DNA of 64,000 nucleotides from Emiliania huxleyi CCMP1516 (lineage: Eukaryota): assembly GCF_000372725.1 (NCBI RefSeq), contig NW_005201183.1, positions 67,972 to 131,971 on the forward strand, given 5' to 3'. This document shows, in pieces, positions 11,874 through 59,054 of this stretch. The position numbers were made by a program, and so were the translations under genes. How positions within the stretch are numbered: the stretch's first letter is position 1; every line of letters begins with the position of its first letter. Below the pieces are notes generated by a model. The model did no database searches and had not been told where the DNA came from. It saw only the letters and a list, made by a program, of their open reading frames with translations.

Positions 11874-14800
11874 TCATCTCTCCGGCCCCCTCGTCGGCGG
11901 TCGAATCTCCAGCAGCGAGCGCAGGTTGCCAGGCAGCAACTCCTTCCCCGCCTCGAGTAGACGTGTCCGGGCGGAGGCTGGGCTCTCGTCGGGCGCAAAC
12001 ACCTCCGCCACAAAGGACATGAAACGCTGCTGGTACTCCCCGGCGGGTGCGGCCGAGATGCCCTGCGGCTTGTCGCCCTTGACGTACGTCTTGAGGCACC
12101 GCTCGCCAACCTTTTCGCACGTCCACGCCTGCAGCACGTCGATGACTCCGAGGAGCATCACCCCCCCTCCGTGCTGCAGCACCGTCTCCTCGGCGCCCTT
12201 GGGCTGGCCGCTGATGGCGGCGGCGGGCGGCGGCGAGTCAAAGACGCCGAGGAGCAGAGAGTAGTCCATCAGGTTCAAGTCACGTAGGAACGCGGTGTCC
12301 GCCTCGAGCCGCGCGATCAGCTTGGCGCACTGCGCCGCGGGAAGCTTGATCGGGATCTTCTCGCAGCCGTCGAGGCTGGCGCGGACGCGGCGGAGGCCGT
12401 CGCGACGCAGGTCGTTGTCCTTGAGGACCTGCGAGCGACGGGGCGGAGTGCTGGGTCGAGGGAGGCGCGCGGGTCGAGGCCCTCAGGGAGGGTTGTGTGG
12501 GGGGGGGGGGGGGGGGGGAACCCAATTGGCCGGGGCTTTTCCCAAAGGGGGGGGGGGGGGGGGGGGGGGTCCCGACCCCCCCAGCAGCAGAGCGCTGCTG
12601 CTGGGGGGGGGTCCCGACCCCCCCAGCAGCAGAGCGCTGCTGCTGGGGGGGGGGGTCGGCCATGGGCTTAGGTGTGCAGGGGGGGTACCGAGCAGTGTGC
12701 GGCCGCTCTACGTCTGGGGGGGCGACCCCCCCATCTTTGTTTACCGATGCGTCCTAGAATGCAAAAACGCATTCTAGGACGCACTTTTCATCTCAAAGAT
12801 ACCATGTGTCTCGGGTACACAGGGCATTCTAGGATGCGACGGCTGTCCTGGAGATAGCCGCGCCGTGTCTTTNNNNNNNNNNNNNNNNNNNNNNNNNNNN
12901 NNNNNNNNNNNNNNNNNNNNNNNNNNNNNNNNNNNNNNNNNNNNNNNNNNNNNNNNNNNNNNNNNNNNNNNNGGGGGGGTGGACCGACTGGCCGGGCTTG
13001 CCCGTGCGGTTGACCCACGAGCCCTTGAGGTCGTACCGCACTGCGGGAGAGACGTCGCCGTGCAGGTGGAAGGCGGAGCGGAGCACCACAAAGTGGATGG
13101 TGCGCCCGTAGAGGTACATCGAGAACTGGCCGAGGAAGCGGTTGATGTAGGAGGCGGGCTGGTCGTGAAAGTGGCGCGCAAAGGAGGGCGCGAGCTTGCG
13201 CAAGGCCGCCGCCTCCTCCGAAGAGAGCGTCTTGACGACGAGCTGCCCGTCCTGGGAGGGGAAGAGGAACGCGCCCGAGGCGCCTCCCTTGAGGCCGCCG
13301 CCGGCGTGCTCGATCGACTCGATCGACAGCTGCAGCCTCTCGAAGTCGACTCCGGCGCCGTCCCGCATCGCGCCAAACTCGCGCGGCGCCGTGGCGACGA
13401 AGCGGACGCGCGGGCGCGGGCCGAGCACGCGCGTCATCAGCCCCCCCAGCCGCGAGTTCGTCGTCTTGAACGAGGAGAGCGAGGCAAACTGCGCGCCGTC
13501 GCGCGGGGCGAAGGTGCGGCTCACCTGTGGGCGAGCAACCTGTCAGCCAAGCAGGCCAGGAAACGCAGATGCAGTGGGCAGTGAAGACGGCCGGGGGGCG
13601 CGAGAGAAGTCGAGAAGGCAAGAGGGCGAGAGGTCGAGCAGGCAAGAGGGAGAGAGGGCGAGAAGGCAAGAGGGAGAGAGGGCGAGAAGGCAAGAGGGAG
13701 AGAGGGCGAGAAGGCAAGAGGGCGAGAGGGCGAGAACGGCGCTCACCGTCTGCCTGGCGCTGTGGAGGTGCGGCACCGCCGAGGGGAGGTAGAGCACGAG
13801 CAGCGCCCCCACCAGCAGCGCGTCCAGCGCGTGGGCGTCCCACCTGGCATGCGACACGCGCCCCCGCTGAGGGGAGGGGCTCTCTCTCCTGCGCCGTCAA
13901 GGAGGGGCCGCCTCACCCGCCCAGCGTGCAGTGCGGCTCCTCCCCTCCCCCCGCAGCCGCGCTGAAGGCGGCGACGAGGCCGAGGGCGGCCGCCTGGCTG
14001 CCGAGGCGTATCGCAGCCTCGGGCGTGTCGAGGAGGCGCCGCCAGATGGCGCCGCGGGACCCGGCGGCGTGCGACGAGGTGATGGCGAGCGCGAAGGAGA
14101 GCAGGTGCAGGATCGGGAGCAGGGCGGTGATCCAAGTGCACGGGTCGTGCCACTGGGCGGCGACCGCGTCGGCGTGCTCGACCTGCTCCTGCTGCTCGCG
14201 GAACGAGTCGAGAGACGCCTCCTGCGCGACGGTCATCGCGAAGTCCCACAGCTGCTCCGCGCGCTCGATCTCCTCCCTGTGCCGCTCGTACTCGTCGGCG
14301 CTGATCCGCTCGGCGAGCGCCGCGCCCTTGGCGGTGATGGCCACGACCTTGCCGTCCGTGGTGATGTCAGACCAGCGGCCGTAGTACGCCTAATCTCGGG
14401 TAATCTCGGGTAATCTCGGGTAATCTCGGGTAATGTCGGCCCAGCGGCCGTAGTACGCCTCGCTCATGATTGCGTACGCCCACTCGCCGAACTCGGCCGT
14501 CTCCTCCGCGTCCAGCTTGACCAGCCGGCGGCGGCTGTGCCGCCCGACGGTCAGCCGCACCTTCTCGTCCTCGGAGGCGTACGAGTACGTGGAGTCGTCG
14601 CCGCCAAAGAGCCAGCTGGTCGCAGCAGAGAGCGGGTCGTCCGCCACGGCGGGCTTGTGCGGCCGGAGGCGCGCGGTGTAGCACGCTGCGGACGGGCACG
14701 TTAGCATGGCCCGCGGCAGCGGCGGCCACCCCGCACCAATCCCTCGCGGCCCGCTCAGCTGGCGGGCGAGCAACAGCCAGCAGATCGACACCACCTGGAC

Positions 14801-17800
14801 GACCGTCAGGACCTCGCGGAAACGCGACGAGCCGCCGCCGCCGCCGCCCGCCCCCCCCTCCGGGCCCGCCTCTGCCGCGGCCGACGCGCGCACTCCCGCC
14901 GGCACCGGCGCCGGGCCGCCTCCTCCGCGCGCCGTCGCCTCGCCCTCCTCGGTGTCGCGCTTGGCGTACCTAATCTCGGGCAATCTCGGGTAATCTCGGG
15001 TCATCTCGGGTCATCTCGCCCTCCTCCGTGTCGCGCTTGGCGTACCTGGCTCCGCACCCCTCCTCCGCGAGCAGCTCCAGCGGCGGCTCCTCCGACGCGG
15101 GCTCCAGCATCACCACGAGCGGGGCGCCTACCCGCAGACCCGCATCCGCGTGAGCCGACGCCTGCGCGCTCCTCGAGCCTCCTCGAGGCGGCGGCGAGGC
15201 GGCGGCCGTCGCGAGGCAGCGCTTCGTCCGCCGCGCCGCACGTCGCTGCGACGCCCTTTCGTATGCAATGCAGCACCTCGTCGCGGAGCGCCTCGTTGCC
15301 CGTGGGGTCCGTGTCGTCGACCTAATCTCGGGTAATCTCGGGTAATCTCGGGTAATCTCGCCTCGTTGCCCGTGGGGTCCGTGTCGTCGACCTCGAACCC
15401 GCCCGCCTCGCCCTCCCCCTCCTCCTCGCCCTCCCCCTCCCCCTCCTCCTCCCACCCCCGCCCGGCCAGCGCCGTGTCGGGCTCGCCGCCGCGCTTGACC
15501 GCTCCAGCGCCTGCGTCGGCCCCACCGCCGGCCGCCACGCCGCCGTAGCCGAGCAGCAGCCGCCAAGGCACGGGCGCGAAGAGGCCGGCGCGCTGCTGCG
15601 ACGCGAGGAAGGCCATCGTCCACAGTCCCTGCATCGAGAGCATCACCTATCGAGGTCTCGGGTGGTCAGCACCCTGTTGAATCGCCCACAGTCCCTGCAT
15701 CGAGAGCATCACCTATCGAGGTCTCGGGTGGTCAGCACCCCCCTGCTGACCTTAAGGGCGGAGGCCGGAAGGCCGTCGTCCACAGGCCCTGCACCGAGAG
15801 CGTCACACCTGCATGAGGCCGATCCAGTTGGCATCGTCCCCCGCGTGCTCCGGGTCGCTCCACCGCCACGTGGCGAGCGGCTTGCACGCGCGCACAAGCC
15901 ACTTGCAGTCGGCGACGTTGAGCGAGCCTTGGGCGGTCACGGGAGGGGGGGGGCCAGGGGGTGGCGTCGGCCCGGCTGCTGCGGGCAGCGCTGCCGGCGG
16001 GAGAGTGGGCGCGTGGGCGCGTGGGCGTGTGGGCGTGTGGCGTGTGTGGCGGGCGTGTGGCGGGTGTGGCGGGCGTGTGGGCGTGTGGCAGGTGTGGGGT
16101 GTGGCGGGTGTGGCGGGTGTGGGTGTGGAGAGGGTGGGCGTGTGGCAGGTGTGGGGTGTGGCGGGTGTGGCGGGCGTGTGGCGGGCGTGTGGCGGGTGTG
16201 GCGGGTGTGTGGCGGGTGTGGCGGGCGTGGTTCACCCAGCTGGAACATGAGGTAGTAGAGGGGGATCCAGTAGAGCCCGTAGTGGTGGAAGATCGAGTCG
16301 ACGTTCCGCGCGATGGCCTGCTCGCGCGCGCGCATCGCGCGTGTCGACGCGCCGTTCATCGTCCACCCGAGGACGACCACCAGCAGCAGCGAGGTCAGCA
16401 GGCTGAGGAACGCCCAAAAGTAGGCCGCCAAGACCCACGTGCCGCTCGCCAGCGCCGAGTCGTCCTCGTCCGACCAGTCGCCTGAGTAAGAGCTCCTTCA
16501 CCGCTAACCATGAATCCTTACTTCGGAGCCCTCCTCGTCCGACCAGTCGCCGGAGCGCGGCCAGCACTCGATCGGCAGCGTGTGGATCGGCCGCGGCACC
16601 GTGGCCGTCGCAAAGCAAAACTTTGACGCGGCGGTCGCGTTCGCGCCGCCGCTGCCGCCGCCGCTTCTGACGCCGCCGCTGCCGCAGCCCTCCGCGCCGA
16701 AGAGCCCGGCGGTCCACACCCGCTCCTCGCGAGTCGCGTGCACCTTGGGTTCGGGTACCGTGGGGTAGGGGAGGGTGGGTTCGGGTACTGTGGGGATGGG
16801 GGAGGGCGAGTCGCGTGCACCTTGGCGGCGGCGAGGGCGGCGCAGACGAAGCGCGACGTGTCAGACTGGTTGAGAGAACACGACGTCTCCATCAGCCTAC
16901 GCGCACGGCCGGCCCACTCTAGCGGCCTGCTCGACGAGCCGGCGCGGTGTGCCTCGCCCCTCGCGCCCGCGCACGGACAGGTTGGCGGGCGGGAGCTCCG
17001 CCTTCCACGTGTGCAGGGTTAGGGTCAGGGTTAGGGTTAGGGCTAGGGTTAGGGTTAGGGTCAGGGCTAGGGCTAGGGCTAGGGCTAGGGCTAGGGCTAG
17101 TGTTAGTGTTAGTGTTACGGTTAGTGTTAGTGTTAGGGTTAGTGTTAGTGTTAGGGTTAGGGTTAGTGTTGGGGCTAGGATTAGGGTTAGGGTTAGGGTT
17201 AGGGTTAGAGTTGCCTTCCACGTGTGCAGGCAAAAGCCGGCCTCGATGGCAAGCAGCTCGTCCCGAGCCTACAGACCCTCCTCCGGGCAAGGGTCACGCA
17301 AAGGCTCTGACGGAGGCCAGCTCTCGCCGGCGGCTGAAGTCGGCGCACCGGGTGGTGCCGCAGCCAAGGGACGGACGAGTCGAGCGGCTGCGACGCCATC
17401 CGCGTCCTGTCGAGCTCGTCTGCCGCGCCGGCAGGGTCGAGGAGGAGGCGGAAGCCATAGGAGAGGGCCGCGCTGAGGCCTGGAGAGGGAGGCGGCGAGA
17501 GACACTGCGGGAGGGGGAGGGGGGGGGGCGTTGGGGTGTCGCGAGACAGACGACAGCTTGTAGCGGCACCGTACGCGCAGACGCGGGAGCCGAAGGCGAG
17601 CCTGTTCACGGCTGCAGGTGTGAAGAGACGCCGTTCACAGCGTGAGACCGCAGACGCGGGAGCCGAAGGCGAGCCAGAGCGAGAAGGCGGCAGCTCCTCC
17701 CCAGACGAGAAGGTGGTAGAGGCGGCGGGCGCGCGCGTTGTCAGTGAAGGGGTCGCGCCTTGGGTTTGGGTGCCGTGGAGTAGGCAAGGGTGGGTTCGGG

Positions 17801-18753
17801 TACTGTGGGGGTAGGGGAGGGGTTGTCGGTGAAGGGGTCGCGCCTTGCGCAGGGGCGGGAGGGGCGGGGCGGGGTGGGAGAGGCGGGCAGGGCAGGGGAA
17901 GGAGGAGGGGAAGGAGGAGGGGAAGGAGCAGGGGCGGGGGGAGGGGCGGGGCGAGGTGCACATCAGCAGGAACACATCGACCGCCATCACCAGAGCCTGC
18001 GGGCAGAGGGGGCCAGGTGAGACCAGCCTCCACGGTACAGCCGTGCCCGCGCGTGGCGAGGAGGAGACCCATCCCTCGTGCGCCAGGAAGCCAAAGTGCA
18101 CCAGCAGCGGGTTGAGCGACGCCGCCACTGAGCCGCAAAAGTCGCGCCCGATGAGCGACGCCTACAGAGCAGCAGGAGGCGACGGCTGGGCGGAGCTGCC
18201 GTCGTCACCGGTGCGGTCTCCCTTCGGTCCCGGCGCAGCGGCACCGGCACCGCCAGCTCAGCCAGCGCCGTGCCAGCCACCGCGGCGGCGGCGACGCCCG
18301 TCGCTAGCGACCGCCTGCGGATCGGGCGGCGCGGGCGACGTGAGAGAGACAGCAGCGCTGCTCGGCCCTCTCCTCCCGCACCTCGGCTGCTCATCTGGCG
18401 GTGACTCTCGCTCCCACGCCCCTCCCGGGCCGCGAGATGTACACCCCCACAACTCTGCGCGCGCACCAGGCCAGCAGCTGGTTGGGGTAGCGGCGCCACT
18501 TGCGGACGTAGTAGCACCACAGGTTGAGCGCCACCGCGCCGAGGGAGGATGTGGCGCCCATCAGCCTCGAGATGGTGCTGGGCCTGCTGGTCAGCTGCAA
18601 GCCACCGACAACGAAGGCGGCAAAGCCCAAAGCAATTAGCGCCGCCTGGAGAACGCATACTCTGTGATCAACAACGGGTGTGAGAGACAGGTCGCGACGC
18701 GGGCACGTCGGCCTGCACGGCAGCGTCTCGTCGCACGCCGGCAATCCCGGCAT
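11874..18753 (-). CDS. GPCR-PIP kinase fusion (7TM + PIP5K domain), multi-exon, spans an N gap
   Basis: Predicted spliced 7TM motifs RYPNQLLAWRS, LAHEGWALVMAVD...RDPF, YHLLVW, ECW, GLYW, MQGLW; LR-x9-GV at 15250-15288; PIPK motifs GASGAFLF, VVKT, YDLKGS, LKDNDL, MDYSLLLG, GVIDVLQ. Start codon uncertain. Confidence 0.85.
12748..12783. repeat. Perfect 15-bp inverted repeat with 6-nt loop (intronic)
   Basis: tgcgtcctagaatgc-aaaaac-gcattctaggacgca; a further arm-like copy near 12824-12837. Confidence 0.85.
12873..12971. other. Assembly gap (others at 46091-46190 and 47786-48077)
   Basis: N runs. Confidence 1.
13525..13746 (-). other. GT-AG intron with 24-nt tandem repeats; starts with a diverged copy of the next exon
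   Basis: gtgagcgccgttctcgccc versus exon gtgagccgcaccttcgccc; removal gives RQT|VSRTF in frame. Confidence 0.7.
14390..15391 (-). other. Three introns (14390-14458, 14970-15045, 15322-15391), each an exon duplicate plus (cccgagatta)n
   Basis: Each begins with an 18-33-nt copy of the downstream exon and ends ...gagattAG; removal restores the frame. Confidence 0.85.
16744..16820 (-). mobile_element. Intron-forming cassette family B, copy 1
   Basis: 15-nt exon duplicate plus ccccacagtacccgaacccaccctcccctaccccacggtacccgaacccAAG. Confidence 0.75.
17002..17214 (-). repeat. Intron made of degenerate telomeric (CCCTAA)n flanked by an 18-nt direct repeat
   Basis: gccttccacgtgtgcagg at 17000-17017 and 17213-17230; GC donor, AAG acceptor. 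Confidence 0.85.
17602..17674 (-). mobile_element. Intron-forming cassette family A, copy 1
   Basis: 26-nt exon duplicate plus tgtgaacggcgtctcttcacacctgcagccgtgaaCAG. Confidence 0.8.
17759..17843 (-). mobile_element. Family B copy 2, inserted at an existing acceptor
   Basis: gttgtcRgtgaaggggtcgcgccttg duplicated at 17737-17762 and 17822-17847 around the B core. Confidence 0.75.
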
Positions 18754-20001: not shown

Positions 20002-22107
20002 ATGAGCCATCCCAGTCTCGCCATGGCCGGCGTCGCCCTGCTGGCCGCGGCCGTGGCTGCCGAGCGCGTCTGCGTTGACCCAGGCGGCGCGAGCTGCTCC
20101 GAGGCGTCCGACGCCGCCCTCTCTGACGCCCTCTCTGCGAACGAGGTGGACCACAACCGCGAGTCTGCCGAGGCGTGCCGGCACTTCTTCTGCGGCGATG
20201 CGGCGGCGGAGGTGGCTCTGCCCCAGATGAGCCGCCACCCGCTCGGCCACGGCCCGCTGGTCGACATCGTCGAGGGCGCCGGCGAGGAGGAGCACTCCAT
20301 CTACGTGACGGAGGCGCCGCTCTTCTCGGCGGCCGAGTGCGACGAGGTGGTGGCGTTGGCCGAGGCGGAGGGAGGCGGCCTTCCGAGCACAAAGTCGGGC
20401 AAGTACCGCATCGGCAAGGCCTGGGTGAGGGAGATGCCGGGTGTGCTGAGCTGGTTCAACGGCGCGCTCGAGACGAAGCTGTACCCGGCGCTGGCGCAGC
20501 TCTTCCCGGCGCACGTCTCTTCGACGGCGCAGCTGCGGGCGCACTCGGTCGCCATCCTCAAGTACAACGAGTCGCACCCCGCGACCGACGTCCACATCGA
20601 CGACGCGCTGCTCGCCTTTACGGTGGCGCTCTCGCCCTCCTCCTCGTTCGAGGGGGGAGGGACGTACTTCGAGAGCCTGCGGGCGGTGCTGCCGATGGGG
20701 CAGGGCATGGTCAGGTGTGAACAGCGTCTCTTCACACGTCCAGCTGTGAACAGGTGCTGCCGATGGAGCAGGGCATGGTCACTTTCCGGCCCGGCGCCGT
20801 GCGGCATGCGGGCCACGCTGTCTCCTCCGGCCTCCGGTACGTCCTCGGCGGCTTCATCGCGCTCGCAGACAGAGTCGAGCACGTGAGGCGGCTCAACGAG
20901 CGTGGCAACCGGCTGCTGCTCGCCCCGTCGCCGACTGCCCCCGAGCTCGAGCAGGCGGACCGGCTGTTTGCGCAGGGGCTGCGCCTCAACCCGCACTGCT
21001 CCCTCTGCCACGCCAACCGCGCCGACGCGCTGCTGCGCCTCGACCGGCCTGCAGAGGCGGAGGAGGAGCTCAAGGCGCAGACGGCGCTGCTGCCGCTCGA
21101 CTCGGACGCCCACTTCTCGCTCGGCGTCGCTCTCCGCGCGCAGGTCCATATCTCCCCGTATCTCCCCATATCTCCCCGTATCTCCCCGTATCTCCCCGTA
21201 TCTCCCCACCTTTCCCCACCTCTCCCCACCTCTCCCCACCTCTCCCCACCTCTCCCCACCTCTCCCCACCTCTCCCCACCTCTCGCTCGGCGCCGCCCCT
21301 CCGCAGGGCCGCACGGCCGAGGCGGTGCAGGCGTACCAGGCCGCGTTGCGCCTCGTGCCGCGCGACTTCGACGCGTGGGTGAACCTCGCCGCCGCACTCG
21401 CTGACCTGGAGCGGTTCGGCGAGGAGGCGGACGCCTACGAGCACGCGGCGGAGCTGCGGCCGTCCGAGGCGCTGCCGTGGCTCAACTTGGGCGAGGCGCG
21501 CCTCTCGACCGGCGACGAGGCCGCGGCGGAGCTCGCCTTCCGACGCGCCTCTGCGGCTGCACCGACCGACGCGCGGCCGTTCCTCTCCCTCGGCCGGCTG
21601 AGCGCTCGCCAGTCGAGACCTGCCGAGGCGATCGACCTCTTCTACCAGGGCGCGCTCGCAAACTCGGAGTACTTTGACGAGGCGAAGCAGGGCATCGCCA
21701 CCGCGCGCACGCAGCAAGGCCGCCTCTCCGAGGCCCTCGCAGACTTCGAGTCGGCGCAGCGGATGGCGCCGAACAGCGAGAAGGTGCGCGCGGCGGTGGA
21801 GGACGTGAGGCGGCAGGCGGCGGCACTCGCGCGCGTCGAGGCCGGCCTCGAGGACCGAGCAGCGGAGGTGTGCGGCACGCCTTGCCGCGACGTGGTCGAC
21901 ACGTCCGGCTACGCGGTGTGCGCCGTCTCGTGGGCGGACGGCTGCGGCGACGCGCCGCCGCCCGACGGCTTCTCCGCCGCCTCACGCGTGGCGGACCTGT
22001 GCGAGCGCACTTGCGCCTTCTACCTGCTGCGAAGCGGCGCCGTCGTGGACGAGGCGTCCGGAGAGGCGACGGAGACGGCGGCAGGAGAGGCGGCGGCCGC
22101 GCCGTGA
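20002..22107 (+). CDS. Secreted 2OG-Fe(II) oxygenase + TPR repeats + Cys-rich C-terminal domain; introns 20686-20753 and 21144-21306
   Basis: Signal-like MAGVALLAAAVAA; HxD (DVHID), FEGGGTYF, RHAG, GLRY; TPRs such as DSDAHFSLGVALRAQ|GRTAEAVQAYQAAL. Confidence 0.85.
20686..20753 (+). mobile_element. Family A copy 2
   Basis: gtgctgccgatggRgcagggcatggtca duplicated around ggtgtgaacagcgtctcttcacacgtccagctgtgaaCAG. Confidence 0.8.
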
Positions 22108-22565: not shown

Positions 22566-23553
22566 CGGAAGCGGGCAGAGGCCGTCAGGCGTCTCTCCGG
22601 CCACTGGCGTCTCAGCGCGCTCGCAAAGAGGCCGACCAACCAACAGACTCACAGAGAATCACAGTCTGCTCATGCAGGTGGGGACCCTGTCCTCCTCCCC
22701 CATCCCTCTCACAGTGGTTTGGGCTCGGCAGCTTTCTCAGCCCTCAGCCGAAGCTGGGGCCGGTGGTCCCTTGGGAAGAAAGCGCTCCCCAATGAATTCG
22801 ACGCGGTCGAGGGGAGAGAGAGAGGCGGATGCGGCGGTGGCGGCGGCTGCGAGAGAGGGAGGTGGACTGCAGCGGCCCGGGGGCCGACTAATGGCTGCCC
22901 GTAGAGAATGGGGGAGAGGGGACACCGTGGTTTTTGGCTAGTTTGTAGTAAAGAAGATCGATCGGTCACACCGCCATCGCCGTCGGGGAGAGGGGGGACG
23001 ACACTGGTCACTGCTTCGGCAGCGTGCACCTCGATCCTGAACCGTGTTTGTTATGACCCCCCCCAATGAACACGCCAGAGAGAGAGGGCGAGACGATCGA
23101 GGGGTCCCGTACCATGCGGAATCGACCCTATCCAGTGCTCAAGTGCTCAAGTAAAGAAGAGTTGCACTTGGGCTTCCCCTGAATGGGTTGGTGTGGACCA
23201 GTGTGGACAGCTTCACAGCTCCACTTCCTGCGCAATTCCAAACCCGTACAACTATGCCTGGGACATTATACATTCGTGGAGCTGTTCACACTTCGCGCTG
23301 TGAAAAGAGCTTGGCCGCCCGCGCCGTGTTGCTGCTGGCGGCCCGCTCGCTACGAGCCCTCCCCTCTGTCTCGCAGTCACATGTACATGTGCATGTACGG
23401 TGTCGGATGCACAGGTGTGGTGCTGCTTCCACAAGCCGGCCTTCGCAGGAAGTGTCTCGGATCAATGGCCGCGCTCTCGACGGCTCCACTCCGGACGCCT
23501 AGGCAGCTACCGAGAGCTTCCTTCCAGCAGCGCAAGGCGCGAGGCGCAGTGCC

Positions 23554-48500: not shown

Positions 48501-49738
48501 AGCTGCTCGACGTAGAGCGCCTTGGGTTCGGGTACCGTGGGGTAGGGGAGGGTGGGTTCGGGTACTGTGGGGGTGGGGGAGGGCGAGCTGCTGCTCGTAG
48601 AGCGCCTGCCTCCGCTCCGCCGCCTCCTCGCCCCCCTCCGCGAGCGCGGCGTATGCCGCCGCCGCCCTGCCGTGAGGGAGCAGCCTCCAGCGCGCGGCGA
48701 GCCACTCGAACGCCCGCTCCCCGCCCTCCGGCTCCGCGGCGGCGTCGAGGCGGAGGGCGGTGAAGTTGGCGACCAGCTGCGCCGTGAGCGGCTCGGTCAA
48801 ATCCGCCAGCGAGCTCAGCACGCCGCACTGCGCCTGCAGCCGCGCGGCGGCGCCGCTGCCGCCGCCGCCCTCGCCGAGCAGCAGCGCCACCCCCACTGCA
48901 ATGAGCGCCGCCTGGGCGACCCGCCCGGAGCGGGTCCCACCGCCACCCTCGGCCTCGTCCGGCGCGACGCCGGCCGCATTCGCGCCGCCGCCGCCGCCGC
49001 CGGCGGCGGCGGCGGCGCCGGAAGCGTGCTCCGTGGTCGTGTCTCCCTCGCCGGCGACCTGCCGGCGCAGCGACGGAGTCGGCGGCGGCGGAGGAGGCAG
49101 CACTGCGTTGTGCGGAAGGCCGACGAGGGCGTGGTAGATGGCGGCGGCGCCGATGCCGAGGAGCGGCGATAGGGCGGCCGTCACCCCGTCCAGGATCGCC
49201 ACCGCCGCGAGGAGAGCCCACGGCAGCCTGCGAGTCTGCAGCCGCACACTGACCAGCGTGACGGTCGACTCTGGCGACGACTGCGCCCAGAGCTGGAGCA
49301 GGGCGAAGAGCGTGGCGGGCGCGAGGGAGGAGGCGTAGCGGCGCTGCACGGGCGGCACGGTCGCGGCGGCCAGCGCGGCGGCGCCGCCAGTGCACAGCAG
49401 CAAAACAACCAGCAGCCGGCGCGAGCCGAGAGCGGGCTCGAGCCGCTCGCACGCGGCGAGCCAGAGCCAGAGGTGGCAGCCGAGGCCCGCGAGCGAGCGG
49501 TAGAGGAGCAGCGAGGCGAGCAGCCGTGCGGGCGACGCTGCCAAGGCTGATGGCTCCAGCGTCGCAGCGCTCGCGGGAGGAAGGGCGCCGAGCGCGGCCG
49601 CCGCAGCCGCAAAAGAGTAGCATAGCAGACCAACTGCGGTGACGGGAGGAAGAGAGGCGCGGCGGGCCGAGTCGACGATGAGGAGCCGAGCGAGCTGCAG
49701 GAGCAGCGCCGCGCCGGCTGCTTCTCGGAGCGCAAGCA
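45501..49738 (-). CDS. Derlin (Der1)-like N-terminus with a long downstream multi-exon region (one or two genes, across two gaps)
   Basis: PPVT, RLE, QLWAQSSPE.TV...V...RRLPW...LLGI....IY match the Der1 pattern; downstream exons are unassigned. Confidence 0.55.
46629..47089 (-). repeat. Intron of about 40 x 11-nt repeats (gccgaggtgcR on the + strand)
   Basis: GT...AG; starts gtcgagcgggacgctc versus next exon gtggaggaggacgcgctc. Confidence 0.85.
48521..48605 (-). mobile_element. Family B copy 3
   Basis: 22-nt exon duplicate (3 mismatches) plus a B core nearly identical to that at 16744-16805. Confidence 0.8.
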
Positions 49739-50486: not shown

Positions 50487-51180
50487 TTATTGTAGGAGAA
50501 TTCTCAGCGCCCTCGCAGCCAGCTCCTTCTGCCCGTCCGTGCCACCGCGAGCCAGCGCCACCAGCGGCGCGATGCCGCCCGCCGTCGCGATCACCACCTG
50601 GTTGTCGGCGTTGCAAGCGAGGTTCCCCAGCGCGCGCGCAGCCTGCTCCTTCTGCCCGTCCGTGCCACCGCGAGCCAGCGCCACCAGCGGCGCGATGCCG
50701 CCCGCCGTCGCGATCACCACCTGGTTGTCGGCGTTGCAAGCGAGGTTCGCCAGCGCCCCCGCGGCCTGTTCCTTCTGCCCGTCCGTGCCGCCGCGAGCCA
50801 GTGCCACCAGCGGCGCGATGCCGCCCGCCCTCGCGATCGCCACCCTGTTGTCGGCGATGCTCCAAGCGAGGTAACACAGCGCCCCCGCGGCCCACCTCTT
50901 CTGCTTCTCGGTGCCGTCGCGAGCCAGCGCCACCAGCGCCGGGATGCCGCCCGCCCTCGCGATCGCCACCTGGTTGTCGGCGTTGTAGGCGAGGTTCTGC
51001 AGCGCCCTCGCGGCCTCCTCCTTTTGCCCGTCCGGGCCGGCGCGAGCCAGCGCCACCAGCGGCGCGATGCCGCCCGCCCTCGCGATCGCCACCTGGTTGT
51101 CGGCGTTGAGAGCGAGGTTCCCCAGCGCCGCCGCGGCCTCTTCCTTCTGCCCGTCCGTGCCGCCGCGAGCCAGCACGCGC
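50487..51180 (-). CDS. Armadillo repeats (41 aa, about 5.5 near-identical units)
   Basis: ADNQVAIARAGGIAPLVALARGGTDGQKE.AA.AL.NLA repeated with a 123-nt period. Confidence 0.9.
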
Positions 51181-52060
51181 CCGGTCGAAGCGGCCGGCGC
51201 GATGAGTCGTGGGTGCGCCCAGCCGAAGCCGCCATTCCGCTGCGAGAGGTGCATCGCCTCCTCGCACCGCCGCTCCGTCGGGCCGGCGGGGTTGGCGTCG
51301 TGCTGCACGTCGCGGATCTCGGAGGGGCTGGTGGCGGTGAGCGTGCGGAAGAGCTGCGCTTGCGTCTCGCCCGCGTACTCGAGCGGCTCACGTGTGACCG
51401 AGGGCTCGCAGCCACGGGCGACGTGGTTGAGCGCGGTCGACGCCTTGAGGGTGAAGCGTCCGAGGAGCTCGGCCGTCTGCCGCCCGAGCGCCGGCGTGAG
51501 CTTCTCGAGCACCCGCAGCTTGATCTCGTGCGCCCGCACCTTGTCCATGGCGATGTCGGTGCGCGCTGCCGCTTCGAAGCCCACGCCGACGCCGTTGACT
51601 CGGAGCGCGTCGCGCAACACCGTCGGCCGCTTGCGCTTTCCCTCGTGCATCTGCGACGGGAAGAGCTTGATGAAGCGTGCCACGTCAAGCTCCGTGTCCT
51701 GCCACTTCCGCGACTGCAGGATCTTGAACTTGCGCGCGTTCGCGGAGAGGTTGAGTTCTCGCTCCGAGAGCTTGACGTAGGCGGTGCACCACTGCGCCGC
51801 CCGTTCGATGTCGGCGACCTCGCGGACGACGGTCGGCGCGTGGGCGTCGTCGGCGATGCACTTCGGTACAACCTCCGGGTACCTCTCCTTGAGCGGCTTA
51901 AGGACGAGGAAGCAGACGGCGATGCAGAAGCTCAGCATGGAGAAGAGGCCGCCTTGCGTGAAGCCGAGGCGGACGGCGAAGCGGTCCAGTCTGCCGTCGA
52001 CGACTGTCAGCACCTCGCCGTGGTGGGTCCGCAAGAAGGCAAGGTCGTCAAGCGCCGCCT
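51181..52060 (-). mobile_element. Non-LTR reverse transcriptase fragment, in frame with the ARM repeats
   Basis: GFTQGGLFSMLSF, IADD (51846-51857), NLSANARK, LNHVARGCEP, HLSQRNGGFG...IAPAA. Confidence 0.75.
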
Positions 52061-52144
52061 CCGCCGCTTTTTTTCGAGATGCGTGTGTCTCGCGGGGGCA
52101 GCGGCAAGGAGGAACCGATGCGCCGCACGCACACGTGTACGTGT

Positions 52145-53542
52145 ATGTCCGCCGTCGCTCTCCTTCTCGTGGCAGCCGCGGCCACGACGGCGGCACCCGC
52201 AAAAGCTCCAGTCGGCGACGGCGGCGGCGGCACGAACACCAGCGCCCGCCGATTTCCAAAGTTCGGACTACGTGCGTCCGCCGCCGCGCCAGCAGACGCT
52301 TGCGCGCCAGCTGGTGCCCCCAGATGCGTCGACGGCGCGAGTGACAAACTTCAACTCTGCCTGCAACGTGCGAATCGCTCCATTTGGGAGGGCGTTCTCT
52401 CAAACCAGCGCGGCAATCCCACAGAGCGACCGGAATGGGACGGAATCGACTGGACACCGGTGGGCAAGGCTGGGCGCTTCAAAACGAGGCACGATGTGAC
52501 AGAGAGATTCCCCGTGGGCATGCGTTCGTACGCAGAAGTCATCCGCTGGCAGATGGCACCTTACGCGAATATAACCAGTCAAATGGTCGACGCTGCCTGG
52601 AGCGTTGCCAAACAGAAGACGTCAGCGAGGGTGACGATCCGGGCCGGAGGCATGCGCGTTCTGAATTCTGGCAGTGACATCGGAAGAAGAGCGCAGGTGC
52701 TTGAGATTCTTCGGGAGGTGCACCGGGACTCGCCGCTGCCCGATGCTGACCTCATCATCTTGTTCTCAGATTTAGCTCCGGAACAAGAGTGGGCTCCTGT
52801 GCAATCTGGGTCGGAGCTTCGCCGCGCTCCAATCTTCATGGCTTCTCGCAGATCGGAGGACTCGCGCATCCTGTTGCTGCCAGACCACACTTTCCCAGAA
52901 TTCTGGGACCTTATCGAACGCAATGAGCACTTCTTGCTGAGTGCTGAGAAGGACTTCTCGCAGCGGATACCCAAAATGCATTTCGTGGGCACCAGAAATA
53001 CATATCGAAACTCCGCCTGGTGCTTAGGCGCTGCGACCGCCAATGGCTCCATGATGACCGGGCTTCTTACCGAAGCCATCGGATTCAGAGGGGGAGTTGA
53101 AAAATGCGATCTCCCCACGTGGCCAGAGCGGCAAGGCCGCAGCGACGCATGTCACTACCAGTACCTGCTTTCTCCGGGGGGTGGTACCTGGCCTTCCTAC
53201 TCCAACCGATTCAAGAACCTCTTCGCCTGTGGCTCAGTTCCTGTGGTCACAAACACGGACTGGTACGAGTTCTTCTACCCACTGCTTCGCCCACACCACG
53301 ATTTTGTCCCTGCCGAGAATGCACTTGGCTCTCTTTCCCGATATGTTTTCCCTACCGCCGAGTGCTTGCGCCAGTCGCCGCTTATCGCCAAAAACATAGC
53401 AGCGAACGCACGACAATTTGTCAAGCAGCATCTTTCGAAACGCGCCGTCAAGCAGTATGTGCGCGATCTTCTCGTTGCATACTCGAAGCGCATGTCAATT
53501 CCACGACGCGGCCCAAATAGAGTTACAAAGGGGGTTCAGTAG
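52145..53542 (+). CDS. Secreted GT90 (CAP10/POGLUT-like) glycosyltransferase
   Basis: Signal peptide; LPDADL..FSD, ILLLPDHTF, CHYQYLL...SYSNRFKNLFACGS, WYEFFY..L.P..DFVP, IAANARQF. Confidence 0.85.
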   Translation: MSAVALLLVAAAATTAAPAKAPVGDGGGGTNTSARRFPKFGLRASAAAPADACAPAGAPRCVDGASDKLQLCLQRANRSIWEGVLSNQRGNPTERPEWDGIDWTPVGKAGRFKTRHDVTERFPVGMRSYAEVIRWQMAPYANITSQMVDAAWSVAKQKTSARVTIRAGGMRVLNSGSDIGRRAQVLEILREVHRDSPLPDADLIILFSDLAPEQEWAPVQSGSELRRAPIFMASRRSEDSRILLLPDHTFPEFWDLIERNEHFLLSAEKDFSQRIPKMHFVGTRNTYRNSAWCLGAATANGSMMTGLLTEAIGFRGGVEKCDLPTWPERQGRSDACHYQYLLSPGGGTWPSYSNRFKNLFACGSVPVVTNTDWYEFFYPLLRPHHDFVPAENALGSLSRYVFPTAECLRQSPLIAKNIAANARQFVKQHLSKRAVKQYVRDLLVAYSKRMSIPRRGPNRVTKGVQ

Positions 53543-54022
53543 GGGGAGAGGGGGTACGTACAAATCAAAAGATGGTCGTTCCCACTGGCGTTAAAGCGGA
53601 GGGCCGCCACGACTGTTGTTGGCTCTGCCCACTGCCGCCGCGCTGGCTTGGATGCTGCCCCAAAGGCGGCTGGACTCGCTTGCTTGCCCTATCTATGTGC
53701 AATGTGTGGGCAACGCGGCAACGCGCGCACGCTTGCCAGCCGTTTCACGCGTTTGTCGTTGAGTCTTTGATAAGGTGTTCTCGTTTTCTTGTAAGGGGTA
53801 AGTGACAGAGTGTGGACCAAATCGGGACGGCGCCCCTCATCAGCCACCCCAAAGCGAGGCGACGCGTCTCGTCATCCGCCCCAAAATCCGGTCCTGCCAG
53901 TTTCCCAGCGCTAAAAAGAAAATCCGGCGGCTACGTCCGCGGAGCCTCCTCCGTCGACGCGCGGCGGCGGCGACGTCCCTGCAAGCATTCGGAAGGCCGC
54001 CAAGGATGGCCAATCGGGAGCG

Positions 54023-55940
54023 GTGCTGGCGTGGCTCGACGACGGCGGGCGGGTCGACGAGACGTTCGAGTACACCTTTGATGGCGGCTCGTGCTCGAGC
54101 GGCATGACGCTGCTGATGGTCGCAATGTCCAATGGCCACGCGGAGCTGGCCGAGGCGCTTCTGCGGCGCGGTGCGGATGTCTCATTGCTGACTAGCGCCG
54201 GCAGCTACTATGCGCTGGGTCTCGCCGCCGTGAACGGCCACAAGAAGCTGGTCGAGCTGGCATTGCGGCACGGCGCGGAGGTCAATCTGCAAAACAAGCT
54301 TGGCGTCACTGCGCTGATGGAGGCCGCCTACCAAGGCTACGAGCGGATTGTCGACACTCTGATCCGGCACGGTGCGGCGATCAACCTGCAGAGCAGTCTC
54401 GGCGGCACCGCGCTGATGGGGGCCGCTATCCACAACCATCCCGCCGTCGTGCTTCGCGTGCTGCGGGCGGGCGCTGACATGACGCTGCGCTCAAGCGGCG
54501 GCAGGACGGCGCTGCAGATTGCCAAGGAGAAGGGCCACACCGAGTGCTACGAGGCCGTCAGGACGTATCTCGGGGAGGTGACGGCAGCTCGGATCAAGGC
54601 GCTGTCGGCCGAGGCGGGCGGCGCAGGGGCGGGCGGCGCACCCGCAGGCGAGGCGGCGGCGGGCGCCAGTGCTGCGGCCTCTGCTTCGAGCGGCGAGGGC
54701 GCGGGGGCCACGCCGGGCAGCGAGGCAGTGCCAAAGGAGGTCGTGCTAGCGGCTGAGCGAGGCGACGAGACGCCGGTGCTGGCGTGGCTCGACGGCGGCG
54801 GGCGGGTCGACGTTCGAGTACACCTTTAATGACGGCTCGTGTGCGAGCGGCATGACGCTGCTGATGGTCGCAATGGCCAAAGGCCACGAGGAGCTAGCCG
54901 AGGCGCTTCTGCGGCGCGGTGCAGATATCTCGTTGCAGAAGAGCGATGGTGGCACCGCGCTGGTTCTCGCCGCCGGGAACGGCCGCGAGAAGCTGGTCGA
55001 GCTGGCGTTGCGGCACGGCGCGGAGATCGACCAGAAGTACAGCAACGGCAACACTGCGCTGATGCAGGCCGCCGCGAAAGGCCGCGAGCGGGTTGTCGAC
55101 ACGCTGGTCCGGCACGGCGCGCAGATCAACCTGCAGGCCAACGACGGCTTCACAGCACTGATTCTCGCCGCCGCCTTCGGCTACCCCGCCGTCGTGCGTC
55201 AGCTGCTGCGGGCGGGCGCTGACATGACGCTGTGCACTGAGAAGGGTACAACCGCGCTGCAGTACGCCAAGCAACAGGGCCTCGCCGAGTGCGTGCGCGC
55301 CCTCGAGGAGCATGCGGCGGCCAAGGCGGCGGCCGAGAAGGCGGCGAATGAGGCGGCGTGGGCTGCGGGGGCGGCGGAGAGGGCGGCGCAGAGGGCGGCG
55401 GAGGAGAAGGAGGCGGCGCGGCACGCCGAGGAGCTACTGGCGGAGGTCGAGGCGGAGAAACGCGCCAAGGGCAAGAAGGGCAAGAAGAAGAAGAAGGGCG
55501 GCGGGGCGGGCGCGGCTGGGCTGTCGCAGGAGTCCGAGTCGCCGTCGGAGGCAGCCGAGGCCGCAAAGAAGGCCGAGGAGGAGAAAATGATGAGGCTTCT
55601 CGAGAAGTGTCACGAGGAGAGGATCCGGCTCGGCATCACGGCGGAGAGCCAGGCAGCGGCGTCGGCAGCGGTGGCCGAGGCGGTGCGCTTGGACGCGGAG
55701 GCGGACGAGGCGGAGGAGGAGGCAGAGGCGGACAAGGCGGAGGAGGTGGTGGCCGTGGCGGCGCTAGCGGCTGCCGAGGCGGCGCTGGCGGCGGCCGAGG
55801 CGGCGCTGGATGAGGCGAGGGCCGCTGCAGACGCGAGGCGTGCTGCTGCAGAGGCGAGGGGTGCCGCTGCGGTCGCGTCGATGGCAAGGGCGGTTGCAGC
55901 CAGGATGGCGGCGGATGCGGCCCAGGAGCGCTCTACATAG
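54023..55940 (+). pseudogene. Ankyrin-repeat paralog, apparently 5'-truncated, frameshift near 54810
   Basis: gtcgacgttcgag versus gtcgacgagacgttcgag (5-nt loss); shares its linker and repeats with 1-1373; C-terminal coiled coil with a KKGKKKKK tract. Confidence 0.8.
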
Positions 55941-56614: not shown

Positions 56615-59054
56615 TCAGCCGAGGTCGCAGCGCCCCTTGTGGCGCGGCGCGTTACCCGCCACCGAGAAGCACGAGAGCGACGTTGTCTTCGCCGCGACGC
56701 CGCGCACGCCGGCGAGGCCCATCCGCTGGAGCGCCGCGGCGTCGAGCGGCGGCGGCGTGGCGAGGCCGAGCACGCCGGCGGCGAAGGCGTTCGTGTGGCG
56801 CACGGCGTCCTCCTTGCTCCAGCGCAGCCGGCGCAAGCAGCCGGGCTCCGAGCAGACCCCCAGCAGCGAGGCGTACGCCTCCTGGGCGAGGCTCGCGGGG
56901 AGCGCGCCGCGCGCCGCGCGCAGCCGCGGCTCGAGGAGCGCGGCGGCGGCGGGCGGCAGCGGCGGGGCTCGCGTCAGCGGCAGCCCGCCCAAGCAAGTCA
57001 GGAAGGACGCCTCGCTCTCGGCCAGCAGCAGATGGCCGACTCCCGCAGCGCCGGCGCGTCCGGTGCGGCCCAAGCGGTGGATGTACGTCGCTCGGTCGGG
57101 CGGGGCGCCGAGCTGGACGACGGCAGTCACGTCGGGGTAGTCGAGCCTACGTGGTGTGAATAGTCGAGCCTGCGTGGTGTGAATAGTCGAGCCTACGTGG
57201 TGGTGCATACGCCGGCATGAGGGCGGGGAGACGGCATTGTGCAGCGTATTCAGAGCACCGCGTGAAGACAACGGGGAGGAAGACAGTGAATACAGCGGAA
57301 CACGGTCGAATACGGCCGAATACGTGTCCTCTCGGGCGCTAGTTGGAATACATGAACACGTTGCCCGCTTCTAGGTAGTCGAGCCCTCGCGCAGACACGT
57401 CCGAGGAGAAGAGGAGCCTGCGAGGTGAATACGCCATCACCGCGAGCTCGGCCGAGATCAGCACACCCTCCTCTCCCCCTTCTCTCCTCTCTCCTCTCAG
57501 CCTCAGGGCGGGGAGACGGTGCTGTGCAGTGAATCCAGAGCACCGGGTGACTACGAGGGAGGCGAAGACGACTGAACACGGCTGAACACAGTCGAATACA
57601 GCTGTCCGTGTCCTCTCGAGTGTGGGTTGGGGTACAAGAAGACGGAGTCTGCTTCACTGCACTCCAAGCGCTCCAAGTGCTTCTAGGAAGAGCCGCCCGC
57701 CCTCGCTCGCGCGGAAGGCGGCGTCCACCTGCTCACGCGCACACCCCGGTGTGAAGAGACGCTGCTCTCCCCCCCCCCCCTCCCGCCGCGAGGAAAGGCG
57801 GTCCGCCGACGCGCGCTCCGCGTGAGGCAGCCGCGCGTGCAGCTCGAGCGGCGCGGAGCCGCCGAGCCCCATCCGGCGGCAGAGCGCGGCGAGGAAGGAG
57901 ACGAGGCGCGCGGCGCCGGCGTAGACAATCACCTTTGCGGCCGGGTCCGAGCGCAGCGCCAGCAGGGTCCGCACCAGCTCCGCCGCGAGGGCCGCCGGCG
58001 GGGAGACCGTCACGGCCTGCTCGACCGCCGCGTTGGTCGGCGCTTCCGCTCCGATGGCGTCGGCGACGAGCAAGTCGTCGTCCTCCGCCGCCGTCGGCGG
58101 CGCGCACCCGCGACGCGCGGCGGCGGCGAGCGAGCGCACGTCTCCGCGCAGGGTGGCTGAGAAGAGGAGTGTCTGCCACGGAGGCGCCGCCGGGTGGGCA
58201 GCCCTCCGGAGCGAGGCAACGACCGCCTCGACCGGCCGGCGGAAGCCGAGGGCGAGGAGCTGGTCCGCCTCGTCGAGGACGAGGCAGGCGACGCGGCCGA
58301 AGGCGGACGCCGCGCCGTGCCCGCCCGACAGCAGGTCGTTGAGCCGGCCAGGCGTGCCGACGAGTATGCCGGGGCAGAGTGAGCCGCGCAAGGCGGCGAC
58401 GTCGCCGTGCACGCTCGTCCCGCCCACGGCGCAGCGGCACGACACGCGGGGCATGTGGGAGAGCAGCGCCTCGCACACGGCGCCGGTCTGGGTGGCTAGC
58501 TCGCGCGTGGGGGAGACCAGGACAGCCCGCACACCAGGCTGGTCTGGATCCGCCGCGACCCGCTGGATCGCGGGCAGCAAAAAGGCGAGGGTCTTACCAG
58601 ACCCGGTCCTCGCGCGCGCGATGACGTCGCGGCCGGCGAGGGCGGCCGGAATGGTGGCCTGCTGCACCGGAGTCAGCTGCTCAAACGGAAACGACTCGGA
58701 AAGGGCGAGCCGCAGTGTCGCCAGCAGGGGCAGGGACGAAAAGCTGGCGGAGGCAGCGGCAGGCGAGGCGGAGGCAGCGGCAGACGAGGCGGCAGCGCCA
58801 GACGAGGCGGCAGCGCCAGTCGAGGCGGCAGCGCCAGTCGAGGCGGCAGCGCCAGTCGAGGCGGCAGCGCCAGTCGAGGCGGCAGCGCCAGCCGCGAGTT
58901 CCCGGCAGCCCGCATCAGCCTTGCAGCGCTTGCCGTCAGTGGAAGACTCGGCGTTGCGGCGTTTGCCCTTAGTGGCCGCAGTGCGGTGTTTGCCAGCGAT
59001 GGGCGCGTCGGCCTTACGCCGGACCTTCGCGACGGGACCGCTTGCCGCTGGCAT
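56615..59054 (-). CDS. DEAD-box RNA helicase, multi-exon
   Basis: LTPVQQ, TGSGKT, PTRELA, TPGRL, DEAD, FSAT, SDVSARG|LDYPDV, YIHRLGRTGRAG. Confidence 0.93.
57729..57806 (-). mobile_element. Family A copy 5 (diverged)
   Basis: gagcagcgtctcttcacaccggggtgtgcgcgtgagCAG after a diverged exon copy. Confidence 0.65.

Follow-up and report, generated by a model that had tools for sequence, protein, structure and literature searches.

Many introns of about 70 nt in Emiliania huxleyi combine a copy of the adjoining exon with a filler often common to other introns

INTRODUCTION

How spliceosomal introns originate is a question of long standing, and most of the proven mass gains are transposon-like. The closest described systems are compared here to the extent that excerpts of the cited papers describe them. 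Introners co-opt a splice site from a 3–8-nt target duplication, and the elements are alike at both ends (10.1101/2022.06.06.494994; PMC12130899; PMC11282704). The Emiliania huxleyi introns described below resemble them in drawing a splice site from duplicated target, in exact removal, in many GC and some GA donors, in multi-copy families and in a marine algal host, but their duplications are variable and 10–44 nt long, their 5′ ends are ragged and many of their fillers are unrelated. As described in the same excerpts, the published introner screen demanded that similarity come within 10 intronic bases of each end and discarded low-complexity families (10.1101/2022.06.06.494994; PMC12130899; PMC11282704), so that it would miss exon-copy introns by design.

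Among 90 new introns in Daphnia, 33 repeats of 4–12 bp were reported, their source mostly unknown in the portion available (PMC4202315). There too, exon-terminal bases are copied at the opposite intron end and introns are present or absent among populations (among samples in E. huxleyi); the E. huxleyi repeats, in contrast, are 15–40 nt long, and the introns use common fillers that can be traced to other introns and vary little in total length. Introns can also be gained when an AG|GT site is duplicated in tandem in the genome (PMC3265369, PMC4974935). As in that excerpted mechanism, the duplicate holds both splice sites in about 38/65 E. huxleyi cases with fillers other than the filler A family; unlike it, foreign filler, not duplicated exon, makes up over half of the intron. 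LINE-driven tailless retropseudogenes have variable 8–35-nt duplications, no poly(A) and priming on short complementarity (PMC5322556), while linear group II intron retrohoming combines partial reverse splicing with end joining, so that the RNA 3′ end is placed precisely at the downstream exon and the 5′ junction is prone to error (PMC3280974). Both resemble exon-copy introns in those traits, but their products, as excerpted, are neither spliceosomal nor exon-confined. A literature search, with the E. huxleyi genome paper and its supplements outside its reach, found no printed description of introns built from an exon copy and a filler. The genome paper reportedly may describe 10–11-nt intron repeats, which could bear on novelty.

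RESULTS

Exon duplicates in introns of the window

We analysed a 64,000-nt stretch of the CCMP1516 assembly of the bloom-forming alga E. huxleyi (hereafter the window), in which an initial annotation had proposed that most introns begin or end with a copy of the adjacent exon. Many E. huxleyi introns of about 70 nt do consist of a 15–40-nt copy of the adjoining exon plus a filler often common to other introns. The analysis confirms this arrangement, which occurs far outside the window as well. In the window and in metagenome loci the order along the gene is X-T-F-T-Y, where T is the duplicated exon piece, F the filler, and X and Y the flanking exon. All 17 introns of the initial annotation run from GY to AG on the gene strand (11 GC and 6 GT donors; 53–238 nt). 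Duplicates were scored by gapped alignment of the intron end against the flanking exon, with 272 mismatched pairs as controls. In the order of the initial annotation, which places the introns ending with an exon 1 copy last, the 17 scored 23, 30, 35, 26, 20, 17, 27, 26, 22, 12, 21, 15, 12, 8, 18, 17 and 14; the controls reached at most 14, and 10 or more in 4 of 272. Thirteen of the 17 scored above every control, bearing out the proposed duplicates; three were borderline (36321, 57147 and 47197), and the duplicate of 57729–57806 was indistinguishable from chance when set against the 272 mismatched pairs.

Several fillers recur. Filler C, a 10-mer array, follows a copy of about 30 nt of the exon 2 start in 14390–14458 (− strand, 69 nt, GC-AG), a 33-nt duplicate in 14970–15045 (−, 76 nt, GT-AG) and a perfect 35-nt duplicate in 15322–15391 (−, 70 nt, GT-AG), the last two supported by RNA length sums. 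Filler A accompanies perfect duplicates of 27 nt in 17602–17674 (−, 73 nt, GC-AG) and 22 nt in the predicted intron 32416–32486 (+, 71 nt, GC-AG), and a 29-nt duplicate in predicted 20686–20753 (+, 68 nt, GT-AG); a degenerate filler A lies in predicted 57729–57806 (−, 78 nt, GC-AG). Filler B, with a 30-nt period, is joined to a 15–20-nt duplicate in 16744–16820 (−, 77 nt, GT-AG) and to a diverged 24-nt duplicate in predicted 48521–48605 (−, 85 nt, GC-AG). A candidate 85-nt unit of duplicate and filler B, absent from the initial annotation, lies at 17759–17843 (−) and may belong to a longer intron as its 3′ portion.

Elsewhere, a perfect 20-nt duplicate precedes a unique filler in 16482–16550 (−, 69 nt, GC-AG), and a perfect 21-nt duplicate an AT-rich filler in the candidate 47512–47577 (−, 66 nt). 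The latter had been placed at 47524–47592; its duplicate is real (21/21 nt), but exact removal falls at 47512–47577 (66-nt offset) and the earlier cut loses one extra codon. In intron 15647–15808 (−, 162 nt) the copy belonging to its 38-nt duplicate starts 2 nt into the intron, which also contains a 66-nt tandem unit. Copies of exon 1 end three introns: 18 nt in 17002–17214 (−, 213 nt, GC-AG), a telomere-type hexamer array whose duplicate contains both splice sites; a diverged copy in predicted 21144–21306 (+, 163 nt, GT-AG), which holds 10-mer arrays; and 14 nt of the exon 1 end, a borderline match, in the candidate 47197–47249 (−, 53 nt, GC-AG), with a 10-mer filler. Both splice sites also lie within the 27-nt duplicate of predicted 33057–33127 (+, 71 nt, GC-AG; 10-mer filler), absent from the initial annotation. 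The remaining borderline duplicates measure 15 nt in predicted 36321–36404 (−, 84 nt, GC-AG) and 12 nt in predicted 57147–57384 (−, 238 nt, GC-AG), which lies in a DEAD-box gene and has 23-nt tandem copies at its acceptor.

Splicing in silico at the predicted junctions restores SARG|LDYPD and GDFK|AMLQ, as had been claimed, and LRAV|LPMEQG and ALRAQ|GRTAE. Intron phases, at 23:15:17, gave no useful signal. Between 16821 and 17347, enumeration of possible splicing gave 79 models and left the intron set there ambiguous; when the WD40 frame was looked up exactly, there was no match.

Exact removal from RNA and an intron-free allele

RNA contigs from three studies (X11, X13 and X14) skip exactly the 69 nt at 14390–14458, and X11 also skips the 69 nt at 16482–16550; DNA run X3, which has many SNP alleles in common with X11, retains both. 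A seven-intron model (13525–13746, 13844–13916, 14390–14458, 14970–15045, 15128–15206, 15322–15391 and 15647–15808) gives one open frame of 651 codons and spliced lengths of 855, 1366 and 1833, equal to those of the RNA contig to the base; this check stops at 15643, before the seventh intron, where the RNA is compatible rather than exact. A motif-filtered search over 13519–13913 returned no intron pair, and the pair was afterwards confirmed by the length match. An alternative 79-nt intron at 15087–15165 also fits the length, but 15128–15206 is favoured by an X14 piece that begins at 15205. In X13, the anchors of the 213-nt telomeric block (17002–17214) stand 179 RNA letters apart, too few to hold it. 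Four of the seven introns in the RNA-checked stretch have a clear duplicate, and exon 2 begins with GY in all seven. The tested units are dropped from transcripts and the duplications are retained in independent DNA runs; of the contrary outcomes that the initial annotation had named, none of those examined was found.

It had also suggested looking in other strains and sister species for an allele that lacks the intron and carries the repeat once, and DNA run X10 has one: 14390–14458 is missing, a single copy stands in its place, and X10 contigs retain the neighbouring introns. Such an empty allele was seen at one site, in one of five DNA runs. Runs X3 and X6 retain 14390–14458, and X3, X2, X4 and X10 retain 16482–16550; at the 14390 site, contigs of X2 and X4 are broken in a manner that fits either an empty allele or the 30-nt identical copy, and they were not counted. 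The X10 allele may be a loss, because its haplotype is near that of the window and direct repeats favour precise deletion. When all the metagenome loci were compared with one another, shared loci turned up but a further intron polymorphism did not, and the gap between loci L024 and L032, viewed in part, showed no intron difference.

Filler A in wild metagenomes

We traced filler A into at least 122 wild-metagenome loci (228,537 nt), picked by a pattern requiring an intact AG end. Across these loci, 84 of 111 copies had an anchored duplicate (controls, 0/330), the duplicates were 10–40 nt long and the introns totalled 59–79 nt. The claim that most introns are so built agrees with this fraction and with the four of seven checked by RNA, both of which describe selective samples rather than the genome. 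Among the matches listed, the foreign filler makes up 38–57 nt, its fixed AG end abuts the second T, and its 5′ end is ragged and microhomologous. Because the first 10–40 nt of these introns are locus-specific exon copies, similarity between copies does not reach both intron ends. Viewed by eye for terminal inverted repeats, filler A has an internal hairpin and a variable left end. Viral contigs held no filler A.

At least 127 copies occur in at least 102 sequences, with GY next in 113 of the 127 listed. Among the listed non-tandem copies, GY follows the AG in 83/90, against an exon background of 19%, and GY or GA in 86/90. Of 70 free alignments, 52 have the duplicate starting on the acceptor G or one base further on; the later starts, by inspection, mostly have diverged first bases. 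At the 5′ side, 14 of 22 flush junctions share at least 2 nt, against about 22% expected (p ~3e-5, under a crude null), extra letters occur in 35/57 cases, and at least 2 nt are common to the exon 1 end in 17/57 clean cases. The T copies are young (24/57 identical, 18/57 with one difference). Among the matches listed, T length falls as filler length rises (rho −0.73), partly as a boundary artefact.

The hallmarks of target-primed reverse transcription (a variable long duplication, a fixed 3′ end and a truncated, microhomologous 5′ end) were seen in filler A. Dispersal in non-coding DNA in both orientations, typical of that process, was not seen: 86/90 listed copies are followed by GY or GA, and copies are scarce outside genes. 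The window also holds a LINE-like element with an exact 16-nt flanking repeat; this local copy gave no reverse transcriptase domain match.

Donors and other fillers

Donors derive from exon sequence, with the consensus G|GY and nothing beyond. GC accounts for 44/83 filler A donors and 33/37 other 5′-end cases, in keeping with the earlier explanation of GC donors by duplicates and close to the 56–65% published for E. huxleyi (PMC4028052). Non-A duplicates measure 14–44 nt (median about 25 nt with filler A taken in). Fillers span 3% to 82% GC and include telomeric and AT-rich types and both orientations; filler C is sense in four cases and antisense in four. Most non-A fillers match no other (101/3849 pairs similar). 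Many fillers are copies of other introns, sometimes with the donor site's own exon copy. Locus L059 contains a complete intron, the T of which matches the exon of L011; a 130-nt block was copied between two katanin introns, with both block ends inside the donor intron; and an L017 filler extends past the acceptor into the neighbour's exon. Fillers had been called interchangeable; they are common to several genes, but not arbitrary.

The idea that the duplicate supplies one splice site and the filler the other holds for part of the cases; by a count of rows, AG and GY both lie within the duplicate in about 38/65 non-A cases. Enrichment for copying from neighbours was not significant for filler A, where identity gave p 0.26 and upstream extension, over 13 pairs, gave p 0.38, or for other fillers (3/67 against 101/3849 similar, p 0.15–0.26); the sole enriched neighbour measure was the bases shared after AG between neighbouring introns (p 0.005).

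Confinement to genes and to spliceable lengths

Duplicate-filler-duplicate structures were 60–79 nt long in 161/233 cases (shuffles, 0–1) and shorter than 60 nt in 17/233. Filler words formed 21 clusters in the 20.6 kb of six genes, whose limits were drawn partly from the introns themselves, and five weak clusters in the remaining 43.4 kb; the long intronless ORFs of the window held none. The splice register was found on the anchor strand in 65/86 and on the other strand in 24. G|GY makes up 181 of 3330 exon triplets, so a few percent of random exon insertions would be spliceable from the start of T.

DISCUSSION

We put at roughly one half the probability that these introns come from a gene-targeted insertion in which a portion of an intron already present, usually the 3′ end, is copied into an exon at a staggered cut. 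The insertion is likely RNA-templated, with long target duplications, and intron making by copying existing intron pieces is likely still active. Two nicks 15–40 nt apart would be made at a G|GY site; a reverse transcriptase, arranged as in target-primed reverse transcription, or else a repair polymerase would prime on intron RNA, as excised intron or pre-mRNA, and fill-in would duplicate T. The first T would become the donor, whether GC or GT depending on the exon sequence, and the filler, or an AG at the edge of T, would give the acceptor, removal restoring the reading frame. Persistence would be restricted to products long enough to splice, every new intron could serve as template for the next, and recombination between T copies would yield tandem twins and precise losses. 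Fillers other than intron 3′ ends also exist and count against this reading: filler C on both strands, the telomeric and AT-rich types, the katanin block and L017. A bolder version, which we consider possible but doubtful, has the spliceosome, or an enzyme borrowed from a LINE, catch the 3′ ends of spliced-out intron RNAs at donor-like G|GY sites in transcribed exons, where reverse transcription would leave a 15–40-nt target duplication; this transposon-free, self-propagating cycle would have built most introns and the GC-donor majority of E. huxleyi, the leading coccolithophore of the oceans, and would still be running.

The main rival is remodelling of old intron sites with no new ones: an acceptor-spanning segment is duplicated in tandem, the first intron is lost precisely, and fillers spread by ectopic conversion. 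Tandem twins (21/111 filler A copies among the matches listed) and units that occupy the ends of longer introns, as at 17759, at 57147 and in katanin, speak for it, as does the absence of filler words from long intronless ORFs; confinement to genes and to the sense strand would need no targeting, and the X10 allele could be a loss. Old exon junctions, however, usually show GY at the exon 2 start less often than the 7/7 RNA-checked introns and 83/90 listed filler A sites do, and A stands at exon position −2 in just 18/57. An AG|GY in mid-T or at the 3′ end of T (28/65) is not made by an acceptor-spanning duplication, and E. huxleyi is richer in introns than Diacronema (PMC8379373). We hold remodelling to be unlikely, though a serious contender.

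Less probable still is untargeted repair of staggered double-strand breaks that inserts any DNA, with selection alone retaining spliceable products, the break model of the initial annotation and one proposed for Daphnia. Staggered-break fill-in yields small tandem duplications in the excerpted account (PMC8355091), as this model expects, and fillers of 3%–82% GC, telomeric arrays, both orientations, junction microhomology, extra letters and copies from nearby DNA all suit it. A process that makes long, variable duplications plus filler at scale stands, but its untargeted form mispredicts the near confinement to intron-bearing genes and to spliceable lengths: fillers hardly occur outside genes, a poor match for random breaks followed by selection, and with G|GY so rare (181/3330), neutral non-exon copies should prevail. 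Just 4/90 listed filler A copies lack a donor-like dinucleotide, and just 17/233 structures fall below 60 nt.

We regard it as very unlikely that these are several families of ordinary introners, small DNA transposons whose target duplications would then be unusually long. In favour of this, filler A is a dispersed multi-copy family carrying its acceptor (at least 127 copies in at least 102 sequences), and introners are known to co-opt a donor from the duplication, but the 5′ end is not fixed, the duplication varies from 10 to 40 nt, and most non-A fillers match no other (101/3849 pairs). An artefact of the reference assembly, a draft with gaps and duplications (PMC4028052) and 492 N in the window, can practically be dismissed, given the same units in independent DNA runs, more than 100 others in wild metagenomes and exact removal from RNA.

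Gene-targeted copying of intron pieces and its alternatives can be weighed further in this species. Each young intron records its target site, its junctions and often its template, and with at least one polymorphic site in a cultured, resequenced species, break-repair, retroposition and spliceosome models are comparable with existing data. Gene models and short-read assemblies, we caution, can mis-cut or collapse such junctions. Exon-copy introns are a class overlooked by introner screens, and they offer a cause for the unexplained 56–65% GC donors of E. huxleyi.

Exon duplicates and splicing in the window

The initial annotation described 17 introns in six genes of this GC-rich eukaryotic DNA as a copy of adjacent exon (the duplicate) plus a filler. 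All 17 read GY..AG, with 11 GC and six GT donors. In gapped alignments compared with 272 mismatched controls, the duplicate scored above every control in 13 of the 17, was borderline in three and stood at chance level in 57729–57806. The register of one listed intron was corrected to 47512–47577, and two additional duplicates were found, at 17759–17843 and 33057–33127. In one gene, a seven-intron model gave one open frame and matched RNA lengths of 855, 1366 and 1833, a length check that ends before the seventh intron; the duplicate was clear in four of the seven introns, and in all seven the intron and its exon 2 shared their initial GY. The other five genes were checked by reading frame. The DEAD-box helicase frame matched an Emiliania huxleyi CCMP1516 protein in 255 of 299 columns; the mismatches fall in a single 41-residue gap and at the very start of the alignment. 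The minus-strand gene at 12829–18640 is intron-dense: it packs at least 12 introns into ~5.4 kb, and a PIP5K domain lies at its end.

Splicing was borne out at two sites: RNA contigs from three studies skipped 14390–14458, and those of one study skipped 16482–16550. Both introns were retained in DNA run X3. Since the exact repeat at each site (~20 nt) is shorter than a 31-letter assembly word, graph collapse during assembly is unlikely to account for these skips. An intron-free allele with a single repeat copy had also been predicted, and it was seen at one site in one of five DNA runs, X10, whose DNA status follows an automatic guess of run type. A 1223-nt X10 contig skips exactly 14372–14440. 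It then enters filler belonging to the next intron, and 16482–16550 is retained in further contigs of this run, which marks the allele as a genomic empty one. That intron was retained in runs X3 and X6 and was ambiguous in X2 and X4. The empty allele could be ancestral or could reflect precise loss between the repeats.

Anatomy of duplicate and filler

The overall arrangement is X-T-F-T-Y, where T is the duplicate and F the filler. The filler that we term A has a fixed 3′ end at AG, adjoining the second duplicate; 52 of 70 free alignments begin at this G or one base later. Its 5′ end is ragged: among 57 clean cases 22 were flush and 35 carried extra letters, with 2–4 letters in common at 14 of the 22 flush junctions. 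Beyond G|GY the target shows no consensus (G at −1 in 51/57, A at −2 in 18/57). Of 86 other structures near a filler-A anchor, a few of them degenerate A copies, 65 had a GY-AG register on the anchor strand and 24 had one on the opposite strand. Among those 65, the register lay at the 5′ end of the duplicate in 37 cases, in its middle in 17 and at its 3′ end in 11. The proposal that the duplicate supplies one splice site and the filler the other thus describes part of the cases, both sites lying inside the duplicate in about 38 of 65 by our own count. Ungapped duplicate pairs (n = 57) were identical in 24 cases and differed once in 18.

Among the fillers are 10–11-nt arrays and a 30-nt unit as well as telomere-type hexamers, AT-rich tracts and unique sequence; their GC content ranges from 3% to 82%. 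Telomere-type hexamer arrays lie inside genes at 33197–33365 and 17002–17214, each flanked by a 15–18-nt direct repeat. Elsewhere in the window a single 10-mer array was seen beyond these genes, at 60726–60893, and its unit is different.

Scale beyond the window

Searching metagenome contigs for the filler-A motif yielded at least 124 stretches, reduced to 122 loci, with at least 142 matches; removing 14 at contig edges and 17 repeats of a site left 111. An anchored duplicate (score ≥10) was present in 84 of these 111 copies, versus 0 of 330 permuted pairs. Tandem twins made up 21 of the 111, and the duplicate passed in 68 of the 90 non-twin copies, with duplicates of 10–40 nt, fillers of 38–57 nt and totals of 59–79 nt. 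An unbiased scan across the loci and the window found 252 structures, or 233 after removal of filler-to-filler repeats, a catalogue that still has some redundant loci; 161 spanned 60–79 nt and 17 were under 60 nt. Block-shuffled loci contained 0–1 exact 14-mers in the 55–90 range, versus 163 catalogued under a slightly looser rule. Exon-copy introns are real, widespread and spliced.

Sources of the fillers

Several fillers are copies of other introns. Metagenome locus L059 carries a whole intron whose duplicate matches an exon of L011. Two WD40-gene introns 1 kb apart (35823–35990 and 36889–37030) have in common a 130-nt block that takes in the downstream site's exon copy; this gene is putatively katanin-like, the domain search giving only WD40 families. 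Adjacent DEAD-box introns (57147–57384 and 57420–57687) share a diverged filler of ~150 nt, and a filler at L017 reproduces the acceptor region of its neighbour. Judging by these sequence copies, then, introns appear to act as templates for fillers. The WD40-gene and L017 copies end elsewhere than at the donor's AG, and a general preference for copying from neighbouring introns was not significant. One whole intron, made of exon copy plus filler A, also recurs both as tandem arrays and within an intron of a different gene (L011:120–860, L059:1180–1450, L068:950–1281), one array being inverted and <500 nt from its apparent birthplace. Intergenic 23200–23310 holds partial filler-A-like words (by eye), a possible source or relic.

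Mechanism and alternatives

The process looks tied to transcribed, spliced genes, since GY or GA follows 86 of 90 filler-A copies, short structures are rare, and filler words cluster in genes: the six genes (20.6 kb) hold 21 clusters and the remaining 43.4 kb of the window five weak ones, with gene limits set by us and metagenome loci favouring genic DNA. Filler words were absent from the long ORFs at 27965–30925, 43361–44848, 50487–52478 and 53915–55940, unlike neighbouring genes; among them the domain search points to glycosyl/methyltransferase, and inspection by eye to repeats of ankyrin-, RCC1- and armadillo-like type.

These introns work like break- or retro-insertions with splice-site co-option. 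We favour gene-targeted templated insertion as their source, at a probability of about 0.5. A fixed 3′ end beside the second duplicate and a truncated, microhomologous 5′ end match the geometry of target-primed reverse transcription. The same product would arise if partial reverse splicing were completed by end joining (PMC3280974). In the parts of the sources available, tailless retrocopies show 8–35-nt duplications and priming on 2–18 nt of complementarity (PMC5322556), and post-splicing spliceosome activity is proposed as an intron-transposition route (PMC10996645). By analogy, LINE, reverse-splicing and spliceosome enzymes are candidate agents.

A LINE-like element at 2660–9236 is flanked by an exact direct repeat of 16 nt (copies at 2660 and 9221) and has a TCTG-type tail. 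Its ORFs carry an endonuclease domain (2592–6494) and a zf-RVT domain (7014–8756), with no reverse transcriptase match in those two. The element seems to have lost internal sequence and to carry foreign sequence around 6500–7320. A dispersed ~200-nt repeat has intergenic copies at 24240–24370, 27060–27260 and 31324–31530, one bounded by a 37-nt direct repeat. Near-identical intergenic blocks (59075–59250/59800–60020 and 59515–59790/61735–62010, by eye) are perhaps terminal repeats of a mobile element.

Remodelling of old intron sites is a distinctly less likely source. Random repair of breaks with selection for spliceable products is more doubtful still: as G|GY makes up only 181 of 3330 exon triplets, it predicts many neutral copies outside exons, whereas GY or GA almost always follows filler A and fillers are few outside genes. 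The same clustering in genes beside donor-like GY/GA makes the staggered-break part of the initial proposal, taken as untargeted, a poor fit. Ordinary introners are very improbable: in the portions available, they co-opt splice sites from 3–8-nt duplications (10.1101/2022.06.06.494994, PMC12130899, PMC11282704), against 10–40 nt here in filler A.

Judged by the defining features of introners, Daphnia-type repeats and pure tandem duplications, exon-copy introns belonged to none. Daphnia neointrons carry shorter repeats, of 4–12 bp (PMC4202315, in part). Long repeats at introns have some precedent: the available part of PMC11782384, a survey of 213 introns, reports repeats of 4–30 bp (mean 11.4) near the borders. 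As far as the available text goes, one introner screen (10.1101/2022.06.06.494994) required similarity at both intron ends and dropped low-complexity families, and the main text of neither screen names Emiliania. Among the papers listed by literature searches on huxleyi, Gephyrocapsa and haptophyte introns, none described this architecture.

GC donors

In the available part of a transcriptome study, E. huxleyi has 56–65% GC donors, one verified GA donor and wide intron retention (PMC4028052); there, GC donors are attributed to base composition and exon duplicates go unmentioned. The dinucleotide after the filler-A acceptor is GA in 8 of at least 127 copies (L016, L023, L063, L078, L097 and others), which suggests GA donors. 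After filler A we counted 44 GC, 39 GT and 3 GA, and GC in 33 of 37 other, non-A 5′-end cases. GC donors are common since the exon sequence itself sets the donor, and an exon-copy origin, as first suggested, would account for many of them.
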